32,036 nt of DNA from Patescibacteria group bacterium (GCA_018820085.1 JAHJOV010000020.1:1-32036), one strand, 5' to 3'; positions 2,738-7,183 are shown, numbered from the stretch's first letter. Notes: a model not told the origin generated them from the sequence alone. A program made the numbers and translations.

Positions 2738-2785
2738 CAATTTTTTTATTATAGAATGAGATGGGGGAGAAAGAGGTTAAAAAAA

Positions 2786-3331
2786 ATGAAAAAAAGTAAG
2801 AAATTATTGGGAAAAGCAACGAAAAATGTTCCAAAAAAGGTACTGAAAGAAATGATTCTCGAAAAAATAAGTACTTCTTATAAAAGGCCAACTTTTAATG
2901 ATGTTTTGGCTGAAATAGTACTTGCTGTTTCAAAGAGGTCAGTTTGTCTTTTTTATAGCATTGGTACAGTTATTTTTAGAGATAAGCAAGTTTTGTCTTT
3001 AGGTTATAATGGACCATCAAGGGGTGATGTTCATTGTCATAAAGTTGGATGTAGTCGAATAGTCGGAGGTAAACTTAAAAAAGGAGCTGGTATGTGTCGG
3101 GGTAGTCATGCAGAGTTAAATGCTATAGGTAATGCTGCAAATAACGGTATTAATATTAGTGGAGCGAGTATGATTATTTCTTTTAGTCCTTGTAAATCGT
3201 GTGCAAAACAGATAGTAAACCAAAATATTAAAGAAATTTATTATCTTTCTGAGTATAATTTAGATAAAGATGTTGAAAAATATTTAACTCGTCTTGGTGT
3301 TAAGCTTATTCATTATAAAATTAAAAAATAA
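2786..3331 (+). CDS. dCMP deaminase (ComEB-like zinc-dependent deaminase)
   Basis: GYNG, HAELNA and SPCKSC motifs. Start moved to ATG 2786, which has GAGGT upstream (ORF track starts at 2756). Confidence 0.88.
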   Translation: MKKSKKLLGKATKNVPKKVLKEMILEKISTSYKRPTFNDVLAEIVLAVSKRSVCLFYSIGTVIFRDKQVLSLGYNGPSRGDVHCHKVGCSRIVGGKLKKGAGMCRGSHAELNAIGNAANNGINISGASMIISFSPCKSCAKQIVNQNIKEIYYLSEYNLDKDVEKYLTRLGVKLIHYKIKK

Positions 3332-3335
3332 ATAA

Positions 3336-5015
3336 ATGAACGATAAAATAGTAAATTTAATTAAGAATCAAATTGGGTCTAATGGAGAAAAGGGATGGCC
3401 AGTCGTTGCTAGAGATAGAATTTCTTTTCCTTCTTTTTCTGAATTAAGAGTCACTGACGCTAATGTCGGTGTTGCTTTTTTGTGGACGATGAGAGATGCG
3501 ATTATTCCGAAGTTAAAAAAAGAAAATTTAGCTATCGCTGCTAATTTCTATACTCCAGCTGGTATTCAGCCGATGATAAGAAATATTTTAGGAAATCCCT
3601 TTATTAGATATTTTATTTTATTAGGAGAGGAATATTCTTCGAAATCTTCTAATGATCAAGTATCAGATTTGACTAGCGCAAATGCGATAAGAAATTTCTT
3701 TGAAAAAGGAATAGATAATAATAGAAAGATTAAAGGTTTTGAAAACGCTGTTTATTTAGACAAGAATATTCCTATTAAATTAATAGAAAAGGTGAGAAAA
3801 AATGTTGAGTTTATTGATTTAAATAAAAAAATGCCAACGGCTTCTTTAGACAAAAAAATCAAGGAAGCAAACAAGTTAGTCAAGACTTTTAAAGAAAAAG
3901 AACCCTTTATGATACCTCAAGTTTTTGATTATGAGCAAACTGAGGACTCTTTTCCTTATGAAGGAGGGCCTATTATTGTTTATGGAGGAAATATTCCTGA
4001 AGCTTGGATAAAGATGATCAGTAATATTTATCGATACGGGAGAAAAAATTTAATGAATGCTAATACAGATAGATGGGTTAAGGAAATAAATGATATGACG
4101 GTGGTTATTCATAATCCTCAAGATATGGATTTATCAATTAATCCGTTTTTAATTCCTTTAACCAAAGAGAAAATAGAGGCTTATAAAAAGGAAATCCTAT
4201 CTCCTTTATTACCCAAGGGTAAAGCCTATACTTACGGGAATAAGTTAAGAGCCTATTATTATCCTGATCCTGAAAAGATTAAAGAACTTGTTAATACTAA
4301 AGAATATAAGGATTTTGAATTTGGGCAGGGTAAATGGTTGGATAAAAATATTCGTTATAAGAAAGGTTATTGTGAGATTAATCAGGTTAAAGATGCTATT
4401 GATACTTTAAAAAGAGACCCTTATTCAAAAACATGTGTAGCGATAACTTGGCATGTTGCTGATGAATTGATGAGAAAACATAAATCTTCTCCGTGTTTAG
4501 TGTTTTTACAGGTATTAGTTCAAGATGAAAAATTGAATTTAACTGTATTTTTCAGAAGTCATGATATGACACAGGGTTGGCCTGAAAATGCTTATGGTTG
4601 TGCTGCAATTCAAGAAGAAATTGCTAAAGGTATTGGAGTTGATTCTGGTCTGTTAACTATTATTTCTGGAAGTGCTCAGATCTATAATAATTATTATCAG
4701 CAAGTTGAAGGAATGTTAAAAAAATATAAGAATGTAATGAAAAGGACCTGTCATGATAAAAGAGGAAATTATCAGATTAAAATTGAAAAAAATAAAATCA
4801 TTGTAACTTTACTCCATCCTGAAACTGGGGTGGAGTTGGAAAAATACTCTGGAAAAACAGCATATGATTTAAGAGATAAAATAGCTTCGATATCTTCTTT
4901 AAATACTAATCATGCAATTTATTTAGGAACAGAATTAGCAATTGCCGAAATGTGTCTTAAAAAGAAAAGGTCATATAATCAAGATTCAACTTTCAAAACA
5001 AGTAATTTGTTTTAA
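3336..5015 (+). CDS. Thymidylate synthase-family fusion: MtrA-like N-domain, ThyA core, DUF4346-like C-domain
   Basis: ThyA motifs YTYGNKLR, SSPCL (catalytic Cys), FRSHD, GWPEN, SAQIY. N-terminal GIQPMIRNILGNPFIRYFILLGEE resembles MtrA. C-terminal DKRGNYQI...HAIYLGTELAIAEMCL...YNQD resembles DUF4346. Confidence 0.8.
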   Translation: MNDKIVNLIKNQIGSNGEKGWPVVARDRISFPSFSELRVTDANVGVAFLWTMRDAIIPKLKKENLAIAANFYTPAGIQPMIRNILGNPFIRYFILLGEEYSSKSSNDQVSDLTSANAIRNFFEKGIDNNRKIKGFENAVYLDKNIPIKLIEKVRKNVEFIDLNKKMPTASLDKKIKEANKLVKTFKEKEPFMIPQVFDYEQTEDSFPYEGGPIIVYGGNIPEAWIKMISNIYRYGRKNLMNANTDRWVKEINDMTVVIHNPQDMDLSINPFLIPLTKEKIEAYKKEILSPLLPKGKAYTYGNKLRAYYYPDPEKIKELVNTKEYKDFEFGQGKWLDKNIRYKKGYCEINQVKDAIDTLKRDPYSKTCVAITWHVADELMRKHKSSPCLVFLQVLVQDEKLNLTVFFRSHDMTQGWPENAYGCAAIQEEIAKGIGVDSGLLTIISGSAQIYNNYYQQVEGMLKKYKNVMKRTCHDKRGNYQIKIEKNKIIVTLLHPETGVELEKYSGKTAYDLRDKIASISSLNTNHAIYLGTELAIAEMCLKKKRSYNQDSTFKTSNLF

Positions 5016-5016
5016 C

Positions 5017-6282
5017 ATGAACAAAGACAAAAATTGGAGATTATTGGAGAAAAACGACAAACAAATATACAAAGCGATTATTGGAGAGGAGAAGCGTCAG
5101 CAAAAAGGAATTGAATTAATTCCTTCGGAAAACTATACTTATCCAGAGGTTTTGGCGGCTAATGGTTCTATTTTGACTAATAAGTATTCGGAAGGATATC
5201 CCAAGAAAAGATATTATGGAGGACAGAAATATACTGATATAGTAGAACAATTGGCTATTGATCGAGCTAAAAAAGTTTTTAAATGTGAGCATGCTAATGT
5301 TCAGCCTTTGTCTGGTTCTCCTATGAATCAGGCAGTTTATTTCGCTTTTTTAAAGCCGGGTGATACGATTTTAGGTATGGATTTATCTCATGGCGGTCAT
5401 CTAACTCATGGAGCGCCTGTTTCTCATATGGGTCAGATTTTTAATTTTATTCGATATAAGACCGATCCAGAGAATAAAGGGAAAATAGACTTTAAGGAAT
5501 TAATGAAAATTGCTAAAAAGCATAAGCCCAAGATTGTTCTTTGCGGATATACTTCTTATCCTCGGGATATTGATTATGCTGGTTTCAAGAAAGTAGCTCA
5601 AGCAGTTGGGGCTATAACCATGGCTGATGTTGCCCATATTGGTGGATTGATTGCTGGTGGTGTTATGAATAATCCTTTTGATTATAGTTTTGATATTGTT
5701 ACCACCACAACACACAAGAGCTTGAGGGGTCCTCGGGGCGGTTTAATTCTATGCAAGGAAAAGTTTGCCCAGGCGATTGATAAATCTGTCTTTCCTGGTT
5801 TACAGGGCGGTCCTCATATGCAAACAATCGCTGCTATTGCTATAACTCTTAAAAAAGCAATGCAACCTGAATTTAAAAAATACACTCAACAAATATTAAA
5901 GAATGCTAAAATATTATCCCAAGTATTAATGAAAAATGGAGCCAAATTAATAACTAATGGAACTGATAATCATATGATGGTGATTGATACAATTAAAAGT
6001 TTTAATCTTGATGGAAGAGTAGCTGAGGAAACTTTGGATAAGATTTCTTTAACAGTTAATAAGCAAATTATTCCGGATGATTCGCATCCTCCTTTGCGGC
6101 CAAGCGGTATTCGTTTAGGAACACCAGCGGCTACGACTAGAGGAATGAAGGAAAAGGAAATGGAAATGATTGGTCAATGGATAATTAAGGCCTTGAATAA
6201 TTATAAGGATGATAAGTTTTTAAAAAAACTAAACAAAGAAGTAGAAACAATGTGTTTAAAGTTTAAAGTCCCGGGGATATAA
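5017..6282 (+). CDS. glyA: Serine hydroxymethyltransferase
   Basis: ELIPSENY, NKYSEGYP...YYGG, HGGHLTHG, TTTHKSLRGPRGG (PLP Lys), SGIRLGTPA. First ATG at 5017. Confidence 0.97.
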   Translation: MNKDKNWRLLEKNDKQIYKAIIGEEKRQQKGIELIPSENYTYPEVLAANGSILTNKYSEGYPKKRYYGGQKYTDIVEQLAIDRAKKVFKCEHANVQPLSGSPMNQAVYFAFLKPGDTILGMDLSHGGHLTHGAPVSHMGQIFNFIRYKTDPENKGKIDFKELMKIAKKHKPKIVLCGYTSYPRDIDYAGFKKVAQAVGAITMADVAHIGGLIAGGVMNNPFDYSFDIVTTTTHKSLRGPRGGLILCKEKFAQAIDKSVFPGLQGGPHMQTIAAIAITLKKAMQPEFKKYTQQILKNAKILSQVLMKNGAKLITNGTDNHMMVIDTIKSFNLDGRVAEETLDKISLTVNKQIIPDDSHPPLRPSGIRLGTPAATTRGMKEKEMEMIGQWIIKALNNYKDDKFLKKLNKEVETMCLKFKVPGI

Positions 6283-6283
6283 C

Positions 6284-6377
6284 TTCAGAATTAAGGTCGG
6301 ACCTTGTTTTGCCGGACCTCTGCTGAGGTACGGACAAAACAATGTACGACCTTATCAATACGGACCTTATCAACGCG
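6284..6377. repeat. Family A repeat between glyA and folD
   Basis: TCAGAATTAAGGTCGGACCTTGTTTTGCCGGACCTCTGCTGAGGTACGGACAAAACAATGTACGACCTTA, nearly identical to 1351-1420, followed by GACCTTATCAA tandem units. Confidence 0.95.
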
Positions 6378-6379
6378 AT

Positions 6380-7183
6380 ATGAATATTATAGATGGAAAA
6401 AAAATAGCAGATGGGATTTTGGAAGAGTTGAAGGAAGAAATTGAAGAAAAAGAACTTAAACCTTGTTTAGGTATTATTTTAGTAGGAAATAATCTAGCTT
6501 CTCAGCTATACGTTCAGAAAAAAGAACAAGCTACCCAGAAAGTTGGTATTGAAATTAAAAAGAAAGTTTTAACTCAAAATACTTCAGAAGAAGAAATCTT
6601 AAAAATTATTAATCAATTTAATCAAGATAATCAAGTTAATGGTATTTTAGTTCAAATGCCTTTACCTGAAGGGATTAATTCAGATAAAATTATTAAAGCA
6701 ATTAATCTAGAAAAAGATGTTGATGGGTTTTTGTCAGAAAGTAAGTTTGATTCTCCTTTTATTCTAGCCATAGAACAAGCCCTAAAATCAATTGAGGAGG
6801 ATTTAGATGATAAAAAAACAATTGCTCTGGTTAATTCAGAAGTTTTTGGAGAGAGGTTAGAACATAAATTGAGATTATGTGTTAAAAGTATTCGGGCCAT
6901 CGTATGGCCAAATGTATTCGGCCATCCGATGGCCGAATATGATATTATTATCACTGCTTTAGGCAAACCCCATATAATAAAGGGAGACATGGTTAAATCG
7001 GGTGTTATTTTAATAGATGGCGGAATTAGTAAAAAAGATGGTAAAATAGTAGGAGATGTTGATAGGGAAAGTGTTCAAGAAAAAGCCAGTTGGCTTTCAC
7101 CAGTCCCAGGCGGACTTGGTCCTCTAACAGTCGCTTTTCTTTTGCGAAATGTTATAGGGACGGTAATCAAGGTCGGACCTTAA
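6380..7183 (+). CDS. folD: FolD-family methylenetetrahydrofolate dehydrogenase/cyclohydrolase (divergent)
   Basis: IIDGKKIA, YVQKK, GILVQMPLP, KDVDGF, GDVD, SPVPGGLGPLTV. Confidence 0.9.
   Translation: MNIIDGKKIADGILEELKEEIEEKELKPCLGIILVGNNLASQLYVQKKEQATQKVGIEIKKKVLTQNTSEEEILKIINQFNQDNQVNGILVQMPLPEGINSDKIIKAINLEKDVDGFLSESKFDSPFILAIEQALKSIEEDLDDKKTIALVNSEVFGERLEHKLRLCVKSIRAIVWPNVFGHPMAEYDIIITALGKPHIIKGDMVKSGVILIDGGISKKDGKIVGDVDRESVQEKASWLSPVPGGLGPLTVAFLLRNVIGTVIKVGP
6889..6939 (+). repeat. Family B 51-nt intragenic palindromic element, copy 1 (in folD)
   Basis: TATTCGGGCCATCGTATGGCCAAATGTATTCGGCCATCCGATGGCCGAATA, translated as IRAIVWPNVFGHPMAEY. Confidence 0.95.

Follow-up and report, generated by a model that had tools for sequence, protein, structure and literature searches.

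The window, a single stretch of 32,036 nucleotides from a Patescibacteria group bacterium, carries between positions 2756 and 7183 four tightly packed ORFs on the + strand, which encode a dCMP deaminase, a 559-aa fusion protein, GlyA and FolD. The cluster is best explained as an operon for de novo thymidylate synthesis in an ultra-small CPR (Patescibacteria-type) bacterium, in which the fusion would make dTMP in a folate-dependent reaction, with flanking domains that complete the binding of the cofactor; the probability given to this explanation as a whole is about 50%. The fusion is read as the dTMP synthase of the organism because of its setting among dNTP genes and its nearly invariant ThyA residues. 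The relevant features are:

2756..3331, + strand: dCMP deaminase, 191 aa (PF00383, dCMP_cyt_deam_1, 5.2e-15, 55.6 bits, cut-off 25)
3336..5015, + strand: putative three-domain thymidylate synthase (MtrA-like, short ThyA core, DUF4346), 559 aa
3336..3950, + strand: N-terminal MtrA-like Rossmann-type domain of the fusion, aa 1-205 (PF04208, 8.6e-11; fold match 5laa_B)
3960..4742, + strand: short methanogen-type ThyA catalytic core of the fusion, aa 209-469 (PF00303, 1.3e-19; TIGR03283)
4755..4985, + strand: C-terminal DUF4346 domain of the fusion, aa 474-550 (PF14251, 2.6e-14; 8.2e-16 in a second search)
5017..6282, + strand: serine hydroxymethyltransferase GlyA, 421 aa (PF00464, 6.3e-151; NF000586, 3.1e-165, 549.9 bits, cut-off 335)
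6380..7183, + strand: FolD (methylene-THF dehydrogenase/cyclohydrolase, bifunctional), 267 aa (PF00763, THF_DHG_CYH, 2.5e-36; PF02882, THF_DHG_CYH_C, 5.2e-27)
Contig C21:10925-11443 of the window genome (G000): RibD_C/DHFR-family protein, 173 aa (RibD_C and DHFR_1 matches, likeness to 1cz3)

The packed arrangement of the four genes, first described in a sequence-only reading of the window, was borne out by the ORFs and Pfam searches, and the intergenic gaps are 4, 1, and 97 nt in gene order. The roles assigned there to the neighbours, namely the supply of dUMP by the deaminase and of CH2-THF by GlyA, were confirmed as well. The deaminase start had been placed at 2786, which is the second in-frame ATG of an ORF that begins at 2756. 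For glyA, the listed ORF opens with a TTG at 4942; the first ATG, at 5017, lies two bases past the stop of the fusion. The NCBIfam FolD models match the fourth protein with scores below their equivalog cut-offs. In the proposed scheme, dUMP made by the dCMP deaminase would be methylated to dTMP by the 559-aa enzyme on its minimal methanogen-type ThyA core, with CH2-THF coming from the adjacent GlyA, and FolD would connect this folate pool with the formyl-THF used to formylate Met-tRNA, a step for which the window genome has one fmt gene, on contig C23. Packed against the core, the MtrA-like and DUF4346 domains would together make up a single accessory unit, giving pterin/folate surfaces that the short core does not have, and DUF4346 would occupy the position of the canonical C-terminal lid over the folate. 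Such a lid or binding role is suggested by alignment and domain co-occurrence. DHF would most likely be re-reduced in the window genome by the separate RibD_C/DHFR-family protein of contig C21.

Exactly three Pfam families were found in the 559-aa protein at E ≤ 0.01, each above its curated cut-off: MtrA (PF04208, aa 60-193, 42.2 bits, cut-off 25), Thymidylat_synt (PF00303, aa 344-466, 70.8 bits, cut-off 24.3), and PterinBD-DUF4346 (PF14251, aa 474-550, 54.2 bits, cut-off 29.6). Among the 120 relatives listed, PF14251 and PF00303 occur together in all 120 and PF04208 joins them in 119, so the architecture is no chance pattern, and the MtrA-like/ThyA/DUF4346 fusion recognized in the sequence-only reading holds. 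The core is flanked by about 205 N-terminal and about 90 C-terminal residues, and the N domain, the core and the C domain are predicted to form one compact body in the AlphaFold2 model (mean pLDDT 92.4, pTM 0.91). It had also been proposed that the flanking domains serve as a folate-recycling or reducing module, but no reductase feature was found in either domain. The Pfam search at E ≤ 0.01 returned no NAD(P)- or flavin-binding family and no DHFR_1 (PF00186) or RibD_C (PF01872) match in the protein. The bifunctional DHFR-TS of protozoa and plants is likewise a TS fused to extra domains, an arrangement that could couple the cycle in those organisms, but the flanks of the window fusion are unrelated to DHFR.

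The core motifs SSPC(387)L, R407-S-H-D410, GWPEN(418), and SAQ(448)IY are all seen in the translation, which agrees with the earlier description of the ThyA catalytic Cys, RSHD, the Asn of GWPEN, and a Gln replacing the His of SAHIY. We take the Cys of the P-C motif to be the ThyA catalytic residue, and R-S-x-D, the Tyr of the YG..R block and the His of the S/D-A-H-I-Y block to be functional ThyA positions; Asn418 is presumably the counterpart of the uracil-specifying Asn of ThyA, and Asp410 that of the pterin-binding Asp. In 138 aligned relatives, Cys387, Arg407 and Tyr300 are each conserved in 137, Asn418 in 136, Ser408 and Asp410 in 130, and Tyr450 in 129, and position 448 is His in 112 and Gln in 18. 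The Arg pair of ThyA, presumably the contribution of the partner subunit to the dUMP phosphate, is Lys365-Thr366 in the window protein (Arg in 93/138 and 78/138 of the family). In the window clade, Lys365-Thr366 and Gln448 are always accompanied by a two-residue insertion at 245-246, which is Asp-Arg in 12 of the 13 sequences with all three changes. Since two dUMP-site positions are changed and the insertion is added, substrate handling may differ in this clade.

The best NCBIfam match of the protein is TIGR03283 (aa 215-455, 3e-42, model positions 3-199 of 201), although its score of 144.4 bits is below the equivalog cut-off of 174.55. Foldseek with the model gave ThyA for all top matches (E ~1e-12), and structural alignment gave Z scores of 23.7 for 9iqc_A (rmsd 2.2, 205 residues, 20% identity), 22.2 for MilA (5jnh_A), 19.6 for ThyA (3ix6_B) and 18.0 for T4 dCMP hydroxymethylase. 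The fusion has in common with ThyA (PF00303) the TS fold (Z 18-20 to solved ThyA chains), the Cys nucleophile, R-S-x-D, the Asn, both Tyr residues, and a gene context of dUMP supply. It differs from ThyA in its extra N- and C-terminal residues, in DUF4346 standing in for the canonical C-terminal segment, and, in the window clade, in the Lys-Thr instead of the Arg pair and the Gln instead of the His.

These structural results bear on whether dTMP is the product at all. In pyrimidine hydroxymethylases of the TS fold, the reaction is finished by water and not by hydride, and the cytosine enzymes have Asp in place of Asn; the C-terminal lid of ThyA excludes water. In structure, the core of the fusion comes a little closer to MilA and the flavin dCMP monooxygenase 9iqc_A than to ThyA, the canonical lid is replaced, and dUMP-site residues are changed in the window clade, all of which would suit an enzyme that makes 5-hydroxymethyl-dUMP or another C5-modified pyrimidine, releases THF and leaves DHFR unneeded. 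We regard such a product as highly improbable. Asn418 and Tyr300 are kept, and Asn418 argues for uracil, although the TS fold is shared with MilA and T4 dCMP hydroxymethylase. The fusion is the only TS-type gene found in the window genome and in 21/24 CPR carriers (thyX was found in 3/24), and dTMP is still required by these organisms. Thymidylate kinase is a recurrent neighbour, and an occurrence in at least 596 species-level genomes is ill suited to a niche DNA modification. The hydroxymethyl-dUMP idea of the earlier reading therefore fits poorly with the thymidylate kinase neighbours and the sole TS-type gene.

The MtrA-like domain was aligned by VIA-align to 5laa_B with a Z of 15.3 and an rmsd of 2.8 (156/159 residues aligned, 27% identity). 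It has the same Rossmann-type fold as MtrA (PDB 5laa) and several sequence blocks in common with it, but it lacks the membrane anchor and equivalents of His84 and Glu54, of which His84 is the axial cobalt ligand of MtrA and Glu54 its partner, as given in an excerpt of PMC4915002. These two residues align to Lys103 and Pro74 of the window protein. The corrinoid ligands have no counterpart in the profile of the fusion family: His84 falls in an insertion of MtrA relative to this profile, and the nearest family column holds Ser in 104, Thr in 14, Ala in 10 and Gly in 8 of 138 sequences. Trp50, Tyr72 and Arg82 are nearly invariant in the N domain, and the genome-wide search returned no further PF04208 match in the window genome.

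The DUF4346 domain of the fusion consists of three strands and two helices, with Asp474, Gly477, His526, Gly531, Leu534, Ala537, and Gln549 nearly invariant. Folded alone, this domain of about 75 residues had a pLDDT of 80.0, and no solved fold matched it convincingly (best Z 5.9). A profile search placed the first strands of the domain on the C-terminal strands of S. aureus ThyA (4dq1). The domain also matches the C-terminal part of TIGR00284, a model of archaeal DHPS-like proteins, so that DUF4346 is found on another pterin-using enzyme, albeit with a different catalytic partner. A 379-aa protein of one genome (G321) has an MtrA-like domain joined directly to DUF4346, and its N part and DUF4346 part are both matched by the 390-aa NCBIfam model NF002128; such two-domain proteins have the N and C pairing of the fusion but not the TS core. 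No tested function of DUF4346/PterinBD was found in a literature search.

The flanking domains might instead be neither catalytic nor cofactor sites but regulatory, sensing nucleotides or pterins, or might dock the synthase to dNTP enzymes, which we consider rather unlikely. Fusions to such enzymes do occur among the 120 relatives listed: 18 carry a C-terminal dCMP deaminase domain and 2 a nucleoside 2-deoxyribosyltransferase-like domain. DUF4346 is found free-standing in many DPANN genomes as ORFs of 108-210 aa. By fold, DUF4346 comes closest to protein-binding PH/PTB/EVH1-like domains, but at a Z of 5-6 only. The near-invariance of Trp50, Tyr72, Arg82, Asp474, His526, and Gln549 is more typical of a ligand site, the attachment of DUF4346 to the DHPS-like pterin enzyme points the same way, and a regulatory or docking role would leave the missing folate genes of the carriers unexplained.

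The fusion is a member of a large family, mostly confined to CPR bacteria and DPANN archaea and common in these ultra-small organisms. In six inspected genomes, a dCMP deaminase gene lies within about 3 kb of the fusion gene in five and a thymidylate kinase gene nearby in two, and a two-domain form in G365 is flanked by dNK and Tmk. The neighbours recorded at 40 metagenome loci of the close clade were SHMT (6), FolD (6), NrdD (6) and Tmk (3), and those at 80 loci of a distant branch were dUTPase (16), dCTP deaminase (6) and SHMT (5). In six carriers without SHMT, the gene still has dNTP genes as neighbours (dCMP deaminase, Tmk, dUTPase and dCTP deaminase), and the ORFs scanned about 4 kb to each side included no folate or redox gene. 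The near-invariance of the catalytic residues suggests that these SHMT-less carriers do use the enzyme.

With regard to the reduction of DHF, the earlier reading had stated that this step is not encoded here. This holds for the cluster, but elsewhere in the genome the 173-aa DHFR-family protein of contig C21 was found. The genome-wide profile search detected no folA (PF00186) in the window genome, and the same search missed the C21 protein. Neither thyX (PF02511) nor a FolM-type SDR (PF13561), the other two genes proposed for searching, was found in this genome, rated 93.9% complete, nor were DHPS, MTHFR or thymidine kinase. The C21 protein matches RibD_C with 76.5 bits (3.1e-21; cut-off 24.1) and DHFR_1 with 27.2 bits (cut-off 25), and it aligns over its full length, residues 2-173, to the T. 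maritima DHFR 1cz3 (7.6e-13); all NCBIfam equivalogs are far under their cut-offs (best 43.5 bits vs 150), so that its assignment as a DHFR is tentative. The normal place of folA is beside thyA. Homologues of the C21 protein directly adjoin an ordinary thyA in eight CPR genomes, and in another genome (G001) such a homologue lies 1.6 kb from the three-domain gene. The C21 protein is a candidate DHFR, and with glyA and folD adjacent to the fusion gene, a classical folate cycle can presumably close in the window genome.

A different picture was obtained across the 40 carriers examined (24 CPR and 16 DPANN), which are sampled, related and partly incomplete genomes. Among the CPR carriers, folA was found in none, RibD_C in 5, SHMT in 10 and FolD in 8; among the DPANN carriers, folA in 3, RibD_C in 3, either of the two in 5, SHMT in 5 and FolD in 2. 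No DHFR-family gene was therefore found in 30/40 carriers (19/24 CPR, 11/16 DPANN), no SHMT in 25/40 (glyA present in 15/40), and no FolD in 30/40 (present in 10/40). In contrast, genomes with a TS-core-only match, mostly ordinary ThyA, had folA in 51/57, a DHFR-family gene of either type in 52/57, SHMT in 37/40 and FolD in 36/40. The anti-correlation between the fusion and folA that had been suggested for checking was thus observed, more strongly than the earlier reading had supposed, and its refuting condition did not hold, since carriers do not routinely have folA (0/24 CPR, 3/16 DPANN). A RibD_C-like profile tuned to CPR/DPANN, which recovered both positive controls, found none in the 30 DHFR-less carriers except for a marginal match in G142 (1.0e-3, 17.9 bits). 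One of the carriers without these folate genes is a one-contig genome rated 100% complete (G051). That most carriers have no folate cycle to serve a folate-dependent synthase counts against the preferred explanation.

Based on these absences, the three-domain enzyme could possibly be self-sufficient, with the MtrA-like/DUF4346 unit freeing dTMP synthesis from an external folate cycle, although we hold this to be less than likely. Three routes are conceivable: re-reduction of the oxidised pterin; delivery of the reducing equivalents by the unit itself, with THF and not DHF released, so that a ThyA scaffold would carry out ThyX-like net chemistry; or a bound pterin or other C1 donor that is recharged. 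The glyA, folD and DHFR-like genes of the window genome would then be additions and not requirements. Besides the contrast with the TS-core-only genomes, the retention of the gene among dNTP genes in SHMT-less carriers, with nearly invariant catalytic residues, would agree with self-sufficiency. The TS fold can also change its cofactor, since the closest solved structure, 9iqc_A, is a flavin-dependent dCMP monooxygenase; flavin-using ThyA homologues are described in sections of PMC13326640, where the 5-hydroxy-dCMP synthases (9iqc; phage RB69 gp48 and relatives) illustrate such a switch. These synthases, however, act on dCMP with O2, whereas Asn418 of the fusion points to uracil, its gene context is one of dTMP synthesis, and no flavin motif was found in the fusion protein.

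Several observations argue against self-sufficiency. The protein has no NAD(P)/flavin-binding family, the corrinoid His/Glu is absent from its MtrA-like domain, and DUF4346 is small and without a solved relative. The putative pterin-binding Asp410 is kept in most relatives, and the enzyme coexists with the full cycle in the window genome and with a folA next to glyA in G310 and G414. Corrinoid adenosyltransferase is not commoner in carriers (5/24) than in TS-core-only genomes (14/56). The carriers in which genes are absent are sampled, related and partly incomplete genomes, and searches can miss unfamiliar reductase types. The wider proposal, that the MtrA-like/ThyA/DUF4346 enzyme represents a third way of making thymidylate, with flanks that spare folA and, in most carriers, glyA and folD, by recycling or recharging the pterin in place or by using another reductant or C1 donor, is doubtful; if true, it would explain dTMP synthesis in hundreds of ultra-small bacteria and archaea without a recognisable folate cycle. 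A comparison with ThyX is relevant here. Its carriers are also often without folA, as stated in portions of PMC9931769, and its fold is unrelated. Most ThyX genomes of the same phylum have retained glyA (SHMT in 67/80 tested), whereas the three-domain carriers, unlike genomes with an ordinary ThyA, mostly have neither folA, glyA nor folD.

Thymidylate synthesis is thought to occur in two forms, one based on ThyA, which requires DHFR, and the other on ThyX. In the window, a 559-aa protein composed of an MtrA-like domain, a short ThyA core and a DUF4346 domain is encoded in a tightly packed group with dCMP deaminase, SHMT and FolD, as seen in the ORF listing. These four ORFs were named from Pfam and NCBIfam matches, and those around them from their translations and from Pfam matches of homologous neighbours elsewhere:

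2-1297, + strand, gyrase B C-terminal part with intein
1709-2251, + strand, NusG-like ORF (nusG)
2253-2675, + strand, L11-like ORF (rplK)
2756-3331, + strand, dCMP deaminase, 191 aa
3336-5015, + strand, three-domain protein, 559 aa
5017 (first ATG) to 6282, + strand, SHMT, 421 aa
6380-7183, + strand, FolD, 267 aa
7240-8739, + strand, GatB-like ORF (gatB)

The architecture and the ThyA motifs quoted in the sequence-only reading are both present in the translation and the domain matches. Pfam places MtrA at aa 60-193, Thymidylat_synt at aa 344-466 and PterinBD-DUF4346 at aa 474-550. All three pass their curated cut-offs, and no further Pfam family matched at E <= 0.01. The best NCBIfam match, to TIGR03283, a model for short thymidylate synthases of the methanogen type, spans aa 215-455 at 3e-42 and scores under the equivalog cut-off; the C-terminus resembles that of TIGR00284, an archaeal DHPS-like model. 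The gene family is not new, since databases already name its members thymidylate synthase or DUF4346 protein; searches of the literature outside subscription journals and supplements returned no paper on the architecture, the flanking domains or the phyletic pattern.

A word-indexed search with the three-domain protein found 271 relatives. Among the 120 listed, with 64-100% identity to the window protein, all carried DUF4346 and the TS domain and 119 also MtrA; a dCMP deaminase domain was fused in 18 (after DUF4346 in the sequences printed) and a nucleoside 2-deoxyribosyltransferase-like domain in 2. The record names of these listed relatives included Zambryski-, Wolfe- and Portnoybacteria and Parcubacteria for CPR, and Aenigm-, Nano- and Woesearchaeota for DPANN. 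When 1.84 billion cluster representatives were searched exhaustively with HMMER, 2947 matched at E <= 1e-3, among them 157 at E <= 1e-30, of which the best 150 were mostly 450-550 aa long, about 30% identical and aligned across all three domains. Scanning single genomes of each species for a motif yielded 596 or more encoding stretches; 80 loci were kept, of which 73 had titles of CPR or DPANN lineages or of unclassified bacteria or archaea, and 7 were labelled Bacilli, Clostridia, Gammaproteobacteria or Methanosarcinales, these labels being record titles only. A large share of CPR bacteria and DPANN archaea are predicted to use, as thymidylate synthase, a ThyA-type core joined to two uncharacterised domains.

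The three-domain protein was predicted by AlphaFold2, on a 138-sequence alignment, to form one compact body (mean pLDDT 92.4, pTM 0.91), and Foldseek matched this model to thymidylate synthases only. In an exhaustive structural search, the nearest structure to the core (aa 209-469) was 9iqc_A, a flavin-dependent dCMP monooxygenase of TS fold (Z 23.7), followed by MilA (Z 22.2), ThyA (Z 19.6) and T4 dCMP hydroxymethylase (Z 18.0). Folded alone, DUF4346 gave three strands and two helices (pLDDT 80.0); no solved chain matched it at Z >= 8 (best 5.9), which is not proof of a new fold, and searching the ESM Atlas with this part gave no usable match. In a PDB profile search the start of DUF4346 aligned with the C-terminal strands of S. 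aureus ThyA, and DUF4346 therefore occupies the place of the canonical ThyA C-terminal segment.

The nearest structure to the N domain was the cobalamin-bound MtrA 5laa_B (Z 15.3, 27% identity), and the runners-up were generic Rossmann-type domains (Z <= 6.5). According to the MtrA structure paper, the cobalt is ligated by His84, which is paired with Glu54 (PMC4915002). The window protein has Lys103 and Pro74 at the aligned positions, and in the family profile the His84 position is left without a residue. The domain is therefore an MtrA homologue unable to bind a corrinoid in the manner of MtrA, and corrinoid-dependent methyl transfer through it was rejected as the leading idea on this and the following grounds. 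In the window's genome, G000, MTHFR was not found, and the Pfam scan of 510 ORFs detected no B12-binding domain, no PF02310 and no B12-dependent enzyme, the ribonucleotide reductase being of the anaerobic NrdD type. The corrinoid adenosyltransferase family is not commoner in CPR genomes carrying the full three-domain gene (5/24) than in those matching the ThyA core alone, mostly ordinary ThyA (14/56). G000 itself encodes an ATP:corrinoid adenosyltransferase (contig C5:39970-40521, locus L087:4579-5130; PF02572 2.8e-55, with the cobA model below cut-off).

In the 138-sequence alignment, the ThyA residues Cys387, Arg407, Ser408, Asp410, Asn418, Tyr300 and Tyr450 are nearly invariant, as are Trp50, Tyr72, Gly76 and Arg82 in the N domain and Asp474, Gly477, His526, Gly531, Leu534, Ala537 and Gln549 in the C domain. 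Three sites always change together in the window clade: Lys-(Ala/Thr/Asn) replaces the Arg pair for the dUMP phosphate (365-366), whose second Arg is thereby lost; Gln replaces His448; and positions 245-246 are a two-residue insertion. All three changes occur in 13 sequences; the insertion reads Asp-Arg in 12 of them and Glu-Arg in the other, and its Arg might replace the lost one. Of the 13, 12 also have an 11-residue insertion after aa 102. Within the window clade, identity is 61-100% across CPR-labelled and DPANN-labelled records; the rest of the family is about 30% identical to it, including the enzyme of G001, a carrier in the same phylum (28%). This pattern suggests a possible recent transfer of the synthase between the two domains of life. 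A single-protein search with the window protein gave no match at E <= 1e-30 in five carriers, and the 40 sampled carriers counted below pool the window's close clade with the distant branch.

The belonging together of the N and C domains is borne out by proteins that have both but lack most of the TS core; the two therefore travel as a unit separable from the core. Such proteins, 346-470 aa long, occur in seven DPANN genomes. The one of them scanned with Pfam, a 379-aa protein of the DPANN genome G321 (L131:1256-2392), matched MtrA and DUF4346 only, and NF002128 (NCBIfam, 390 aa, named MtrA) matches both its parts. Other DPANN forms are an N domain and core without DUF4346, flanked in G365 by dNK and Tmk, stand-alone short TS-like ORFs of about 220 aa, and many stand-alone DUF4346 ORFs of 108-210 aa. 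Some split forms may be decayed, since a 222-aa short TS-like protein of G321 (L132:1050-1718) has Gly at the catalytic Cys position; this protein and the 379-aa one may be a decayed or repurposed pair. Their co-folding without alignments scored 0.00, uninformative either way.

The cluster was proposed by the sequence-only reading to lack DHFR. This holds for the cluster but not for the genome. Whole-genome family searches of G000 gave no match to folA, thyX, a FolM-type SDR (PF13561), DHPS or MTHFR, and one formyltransferase; the folA search overlooked, through the limit of its first-look filter, a 173-aa protein at C21:10925-11443. It was detected (RibD_C, 3.1e-21) in a Pfam scan of 510 of the 518 ORFs of at least 100 aa, the remaining eight being window ORFs, four of them scanned separately. 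A direct scan gave a DHFR_1 score of 27.2 bits (cut-off 25); the protein resembles B. subtilis YyaP (1.2e-16) and, over its full length, T. maritima DHFR (7.6e-13), and all NCBIfam models score below cut-off. RibD_C-like ORFs of 170-200 aa adjoin ordinary thyA in eight CPR genomes (G026, G242, G020, G004, G274, G053, G249 and G214), and in G001 one lies 1.6 kb from its own three-domain gene. The C21 protein is a credible DHFR candidate, and because of it the thymidylate cycle of G000 can close in the ordinary way. A FolM/PTR1-type reductase was rejected, given the missing PF13561 match and a Pfam scan without a classical short-chain reductase. In that scan, proteins of the NAD epimerase/dehydratase type numbered three. 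Its other redox proteins were malic enzyme, NrdD and its activase, two thioredoxin-reductase-like proteins, three hydrogenase-like ORFs and one weakly DHO_dh-like ORF (30.3 bits), none of them an evident dihydrofolate reductase.

The distribution of folate genes was examined in the window's phylum (sample A, 301 genomes, among them G000) and in a DPANN phylum around a Woesearchaeota-labelled genome (sample B, 121 genomes). In sample A, carriers were defined by E <= 1e-94 and a match from about position 5 to 478 of a profile of 484 positions.

Table. Genomes with folA, RibD_C and thyX matches. The TS-core-only set includes G154, flagged unpublished; without it, n is 56 and folA 50.
Sample A, all genomes: n = 301; folA 131; RibD_C 82; thyX 123
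Sample A, full three-domain gene: n = 24; folA 0; RibD_C 5; either 5; thyX 3
Sample A, TS-core match only: n = 57; folA 51; folA or RibD_C 52
Sample B, all genomes: n = 121; folA 37; RibD_C 18
Sample B, full three-domain gene: n = 16; folA 3; RibD_C 3; either 5

The anti-correlation of the fusion with folA envisaged in the sequence-only reading was recovered, with folA in 0/24 CPR and 3/16 DPANN carriers versus 51/57 TS-core-only genomes. The five sample A carriers with RibD_C are G000, G001, G198, G213 and G288. Among the six TS-core-only genomes in which folA was not found, G242 has RibD_C adjoining thyA, and the long match spans of G027, G080 and G185 indicate the short TS type, not ordinary ThyA. 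In the sample B carriers with folA, its neighbour is ordinary thyA in G402 and glyA in G310 and G414; a hand-picked Micrarchaeota-labelled carrier also has folA. A profile built from eleven CPR/DPANN RibD_C-like proteins recovered both positive controls and gave one marginal match only in the 30 carriers without a DHFR-family match.

Table. Genomes with SHMT and FolD. For the TS-core-only group, the list of 57 was taken in order up to 40 genomes, G154 excluded; the ThyX genomes are the first 80 non-carriers in list order.
CPR carriers: n = 24; SHMT 10; FolD 8
DPANN carriers: n = 16; SHMT 5; FolD 2
TS-core-only genomes: n = 40; SHMT 37; FolD 36
ThyX genomes: n = 80; SHMT 67

In most sampled carriers, no gene was found to reduce dihydrofolate or to load tetrahydrofolate with a one-carbon unit, and these counts therefore leave the three-domain enzyme as the only recognisable folate-type enzyme in most of them; the counts come from related, non-independent and partly incomplete genomes and mean "not found" rather than "absent". 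The same holds for G051, a single contig rated 100% complete. The carriers without SHMT belong to at least five coded families.

The safest account, to which we give a probability of about one half, is an ordinary pathway with an unusual enzyme. dUMP would be supplied by dCMP deaminase and converted to dTMP by the three-domain synthase with CH2-THF from GlyA, THF would be regenerated by the DHFR-family protein elsewhere in G000, and the flanking domains would complete cofactor binding on a minimal core. This leaves unexplained the 30 of 40 carriers without a DHFR-family gene and the 25 of 40 without SHMT, which a mechanism freeing the enzyme from the folate cycle would accommodate. Such a mechanism is a serious, though less likely, rival; so far neither the sequence nor the fold of the enzyme has shown a feature of the reductase that the sequence-only reading had considered for its flanking domains. 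It is worth testing because the short TS of Methanobacterium reportedly catalysed, in an early study, partial reactions and formed no dTMP with the methylene-pterins tried, and because FolP of Helicobacter bears a flavin-dependent pterin reductase domain. For the folate gaps, it is possible that carriers obtain and recycle folates by an undescribed route, that unknown enzymes fill in, or that the three-domain enzyme itself works differently. Each option bears on DNA replication in tiny-genome episymbionts and on their host dependence, as well as on the puzzle of why archaeal pterin enzymes carry DUF4346.

The context of the three-domain gene is consistently deoxynucleotide synthesis, and for this reason, together with the invariant catalytic residues, its product is called dTMP. 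The top neighbours at 80 distant-branch loci were NusG (17), L11 (17), dUTPase (16), GatB (13), L1 (12) and GyrB (11), followed by dCTP deaminase (6) and SHMT (5); no conserved oxidoreductase occurred across these loci. In five of six carriers without SHMT, dCMP deaminase lies within about 3 kb of the three-domain gene, and the surroundings of the gene in the six also include NUDIX, thymidylate kinase, dCTP deaminase with dUTPase, CTP synthase and deoxyribosyltransferase-like genes. Two of the SHMT-less carriers, G051 and G142, keep the window order (L11 ... dCMP deaminase, TS ... L1), with NusG upstream of L11 and GatB after L1 in G051 (the NusG region of G142 lay outside the scan). The 40 window-clade metagenome loci (61-100% identity, 31 with at least 1.3 kb downstream) contained a radical SAM gene resembling the NrdD activase (7), SHMT, FolD and NrdD (6 each), GatB and thioredoxin (5 each) and Tmk (3). 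In the CPR genome G016, a second TS-like ORF of 317 aa (L137:7268-8218) follows dCMP deaminase and adjoins the three-domain gene, which is on the opposite strand; this ORF may encode a paralogue that acts on another substrate.

The G000 assembly (556 kb, 42 contigs, rated 93.9% complete, about 32% G+C), in which the window is contig C16, has a gene content typical of a CPR bacterium. Thymidine kinase was not found in the whole genome, nor Tmk or SAM synthetase in the Pfam scan, and the only thymidylate kinase signal was a weak match inside an adenylate kinase ORF; the unassembled 6% may contain the missing genes, or they may have diverged beyond detection. Three adjacent ORFs on C8 (L092:316-2877), matching Oxidored_q6, NAD_binding_1 with DHODB_Fe-S_bind, and Fer4_22, look like cytoplasmic hydrogenase or sulfhydrogenase subunits, with no large subunit among the scanned ORFs. 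On C32, a reverse transcriptase (L117:5424-6509) adjoins a bAvd-like ORF (L117:6473-6829), a pair with the signature of a diversity-generating retroelement, and a second RVT_1 ORF is on C5 (L087:6801-7802). The gyrase B gene is split over two contigs: its N part, with an Intein_splicing match, is at the end of C5 (L089:8080-9897), and the window starts inside the intein and runs on into the C-terminal part. GyrB with an intein occurs in the same neighbourhood at several relatives' loci. G000 also encodes a UvrD-type helicase with an intein on C40 (L128:8463-11444) and five LAGLIDADG endonuclease ORFs on C19 and C27 (L103, L111).
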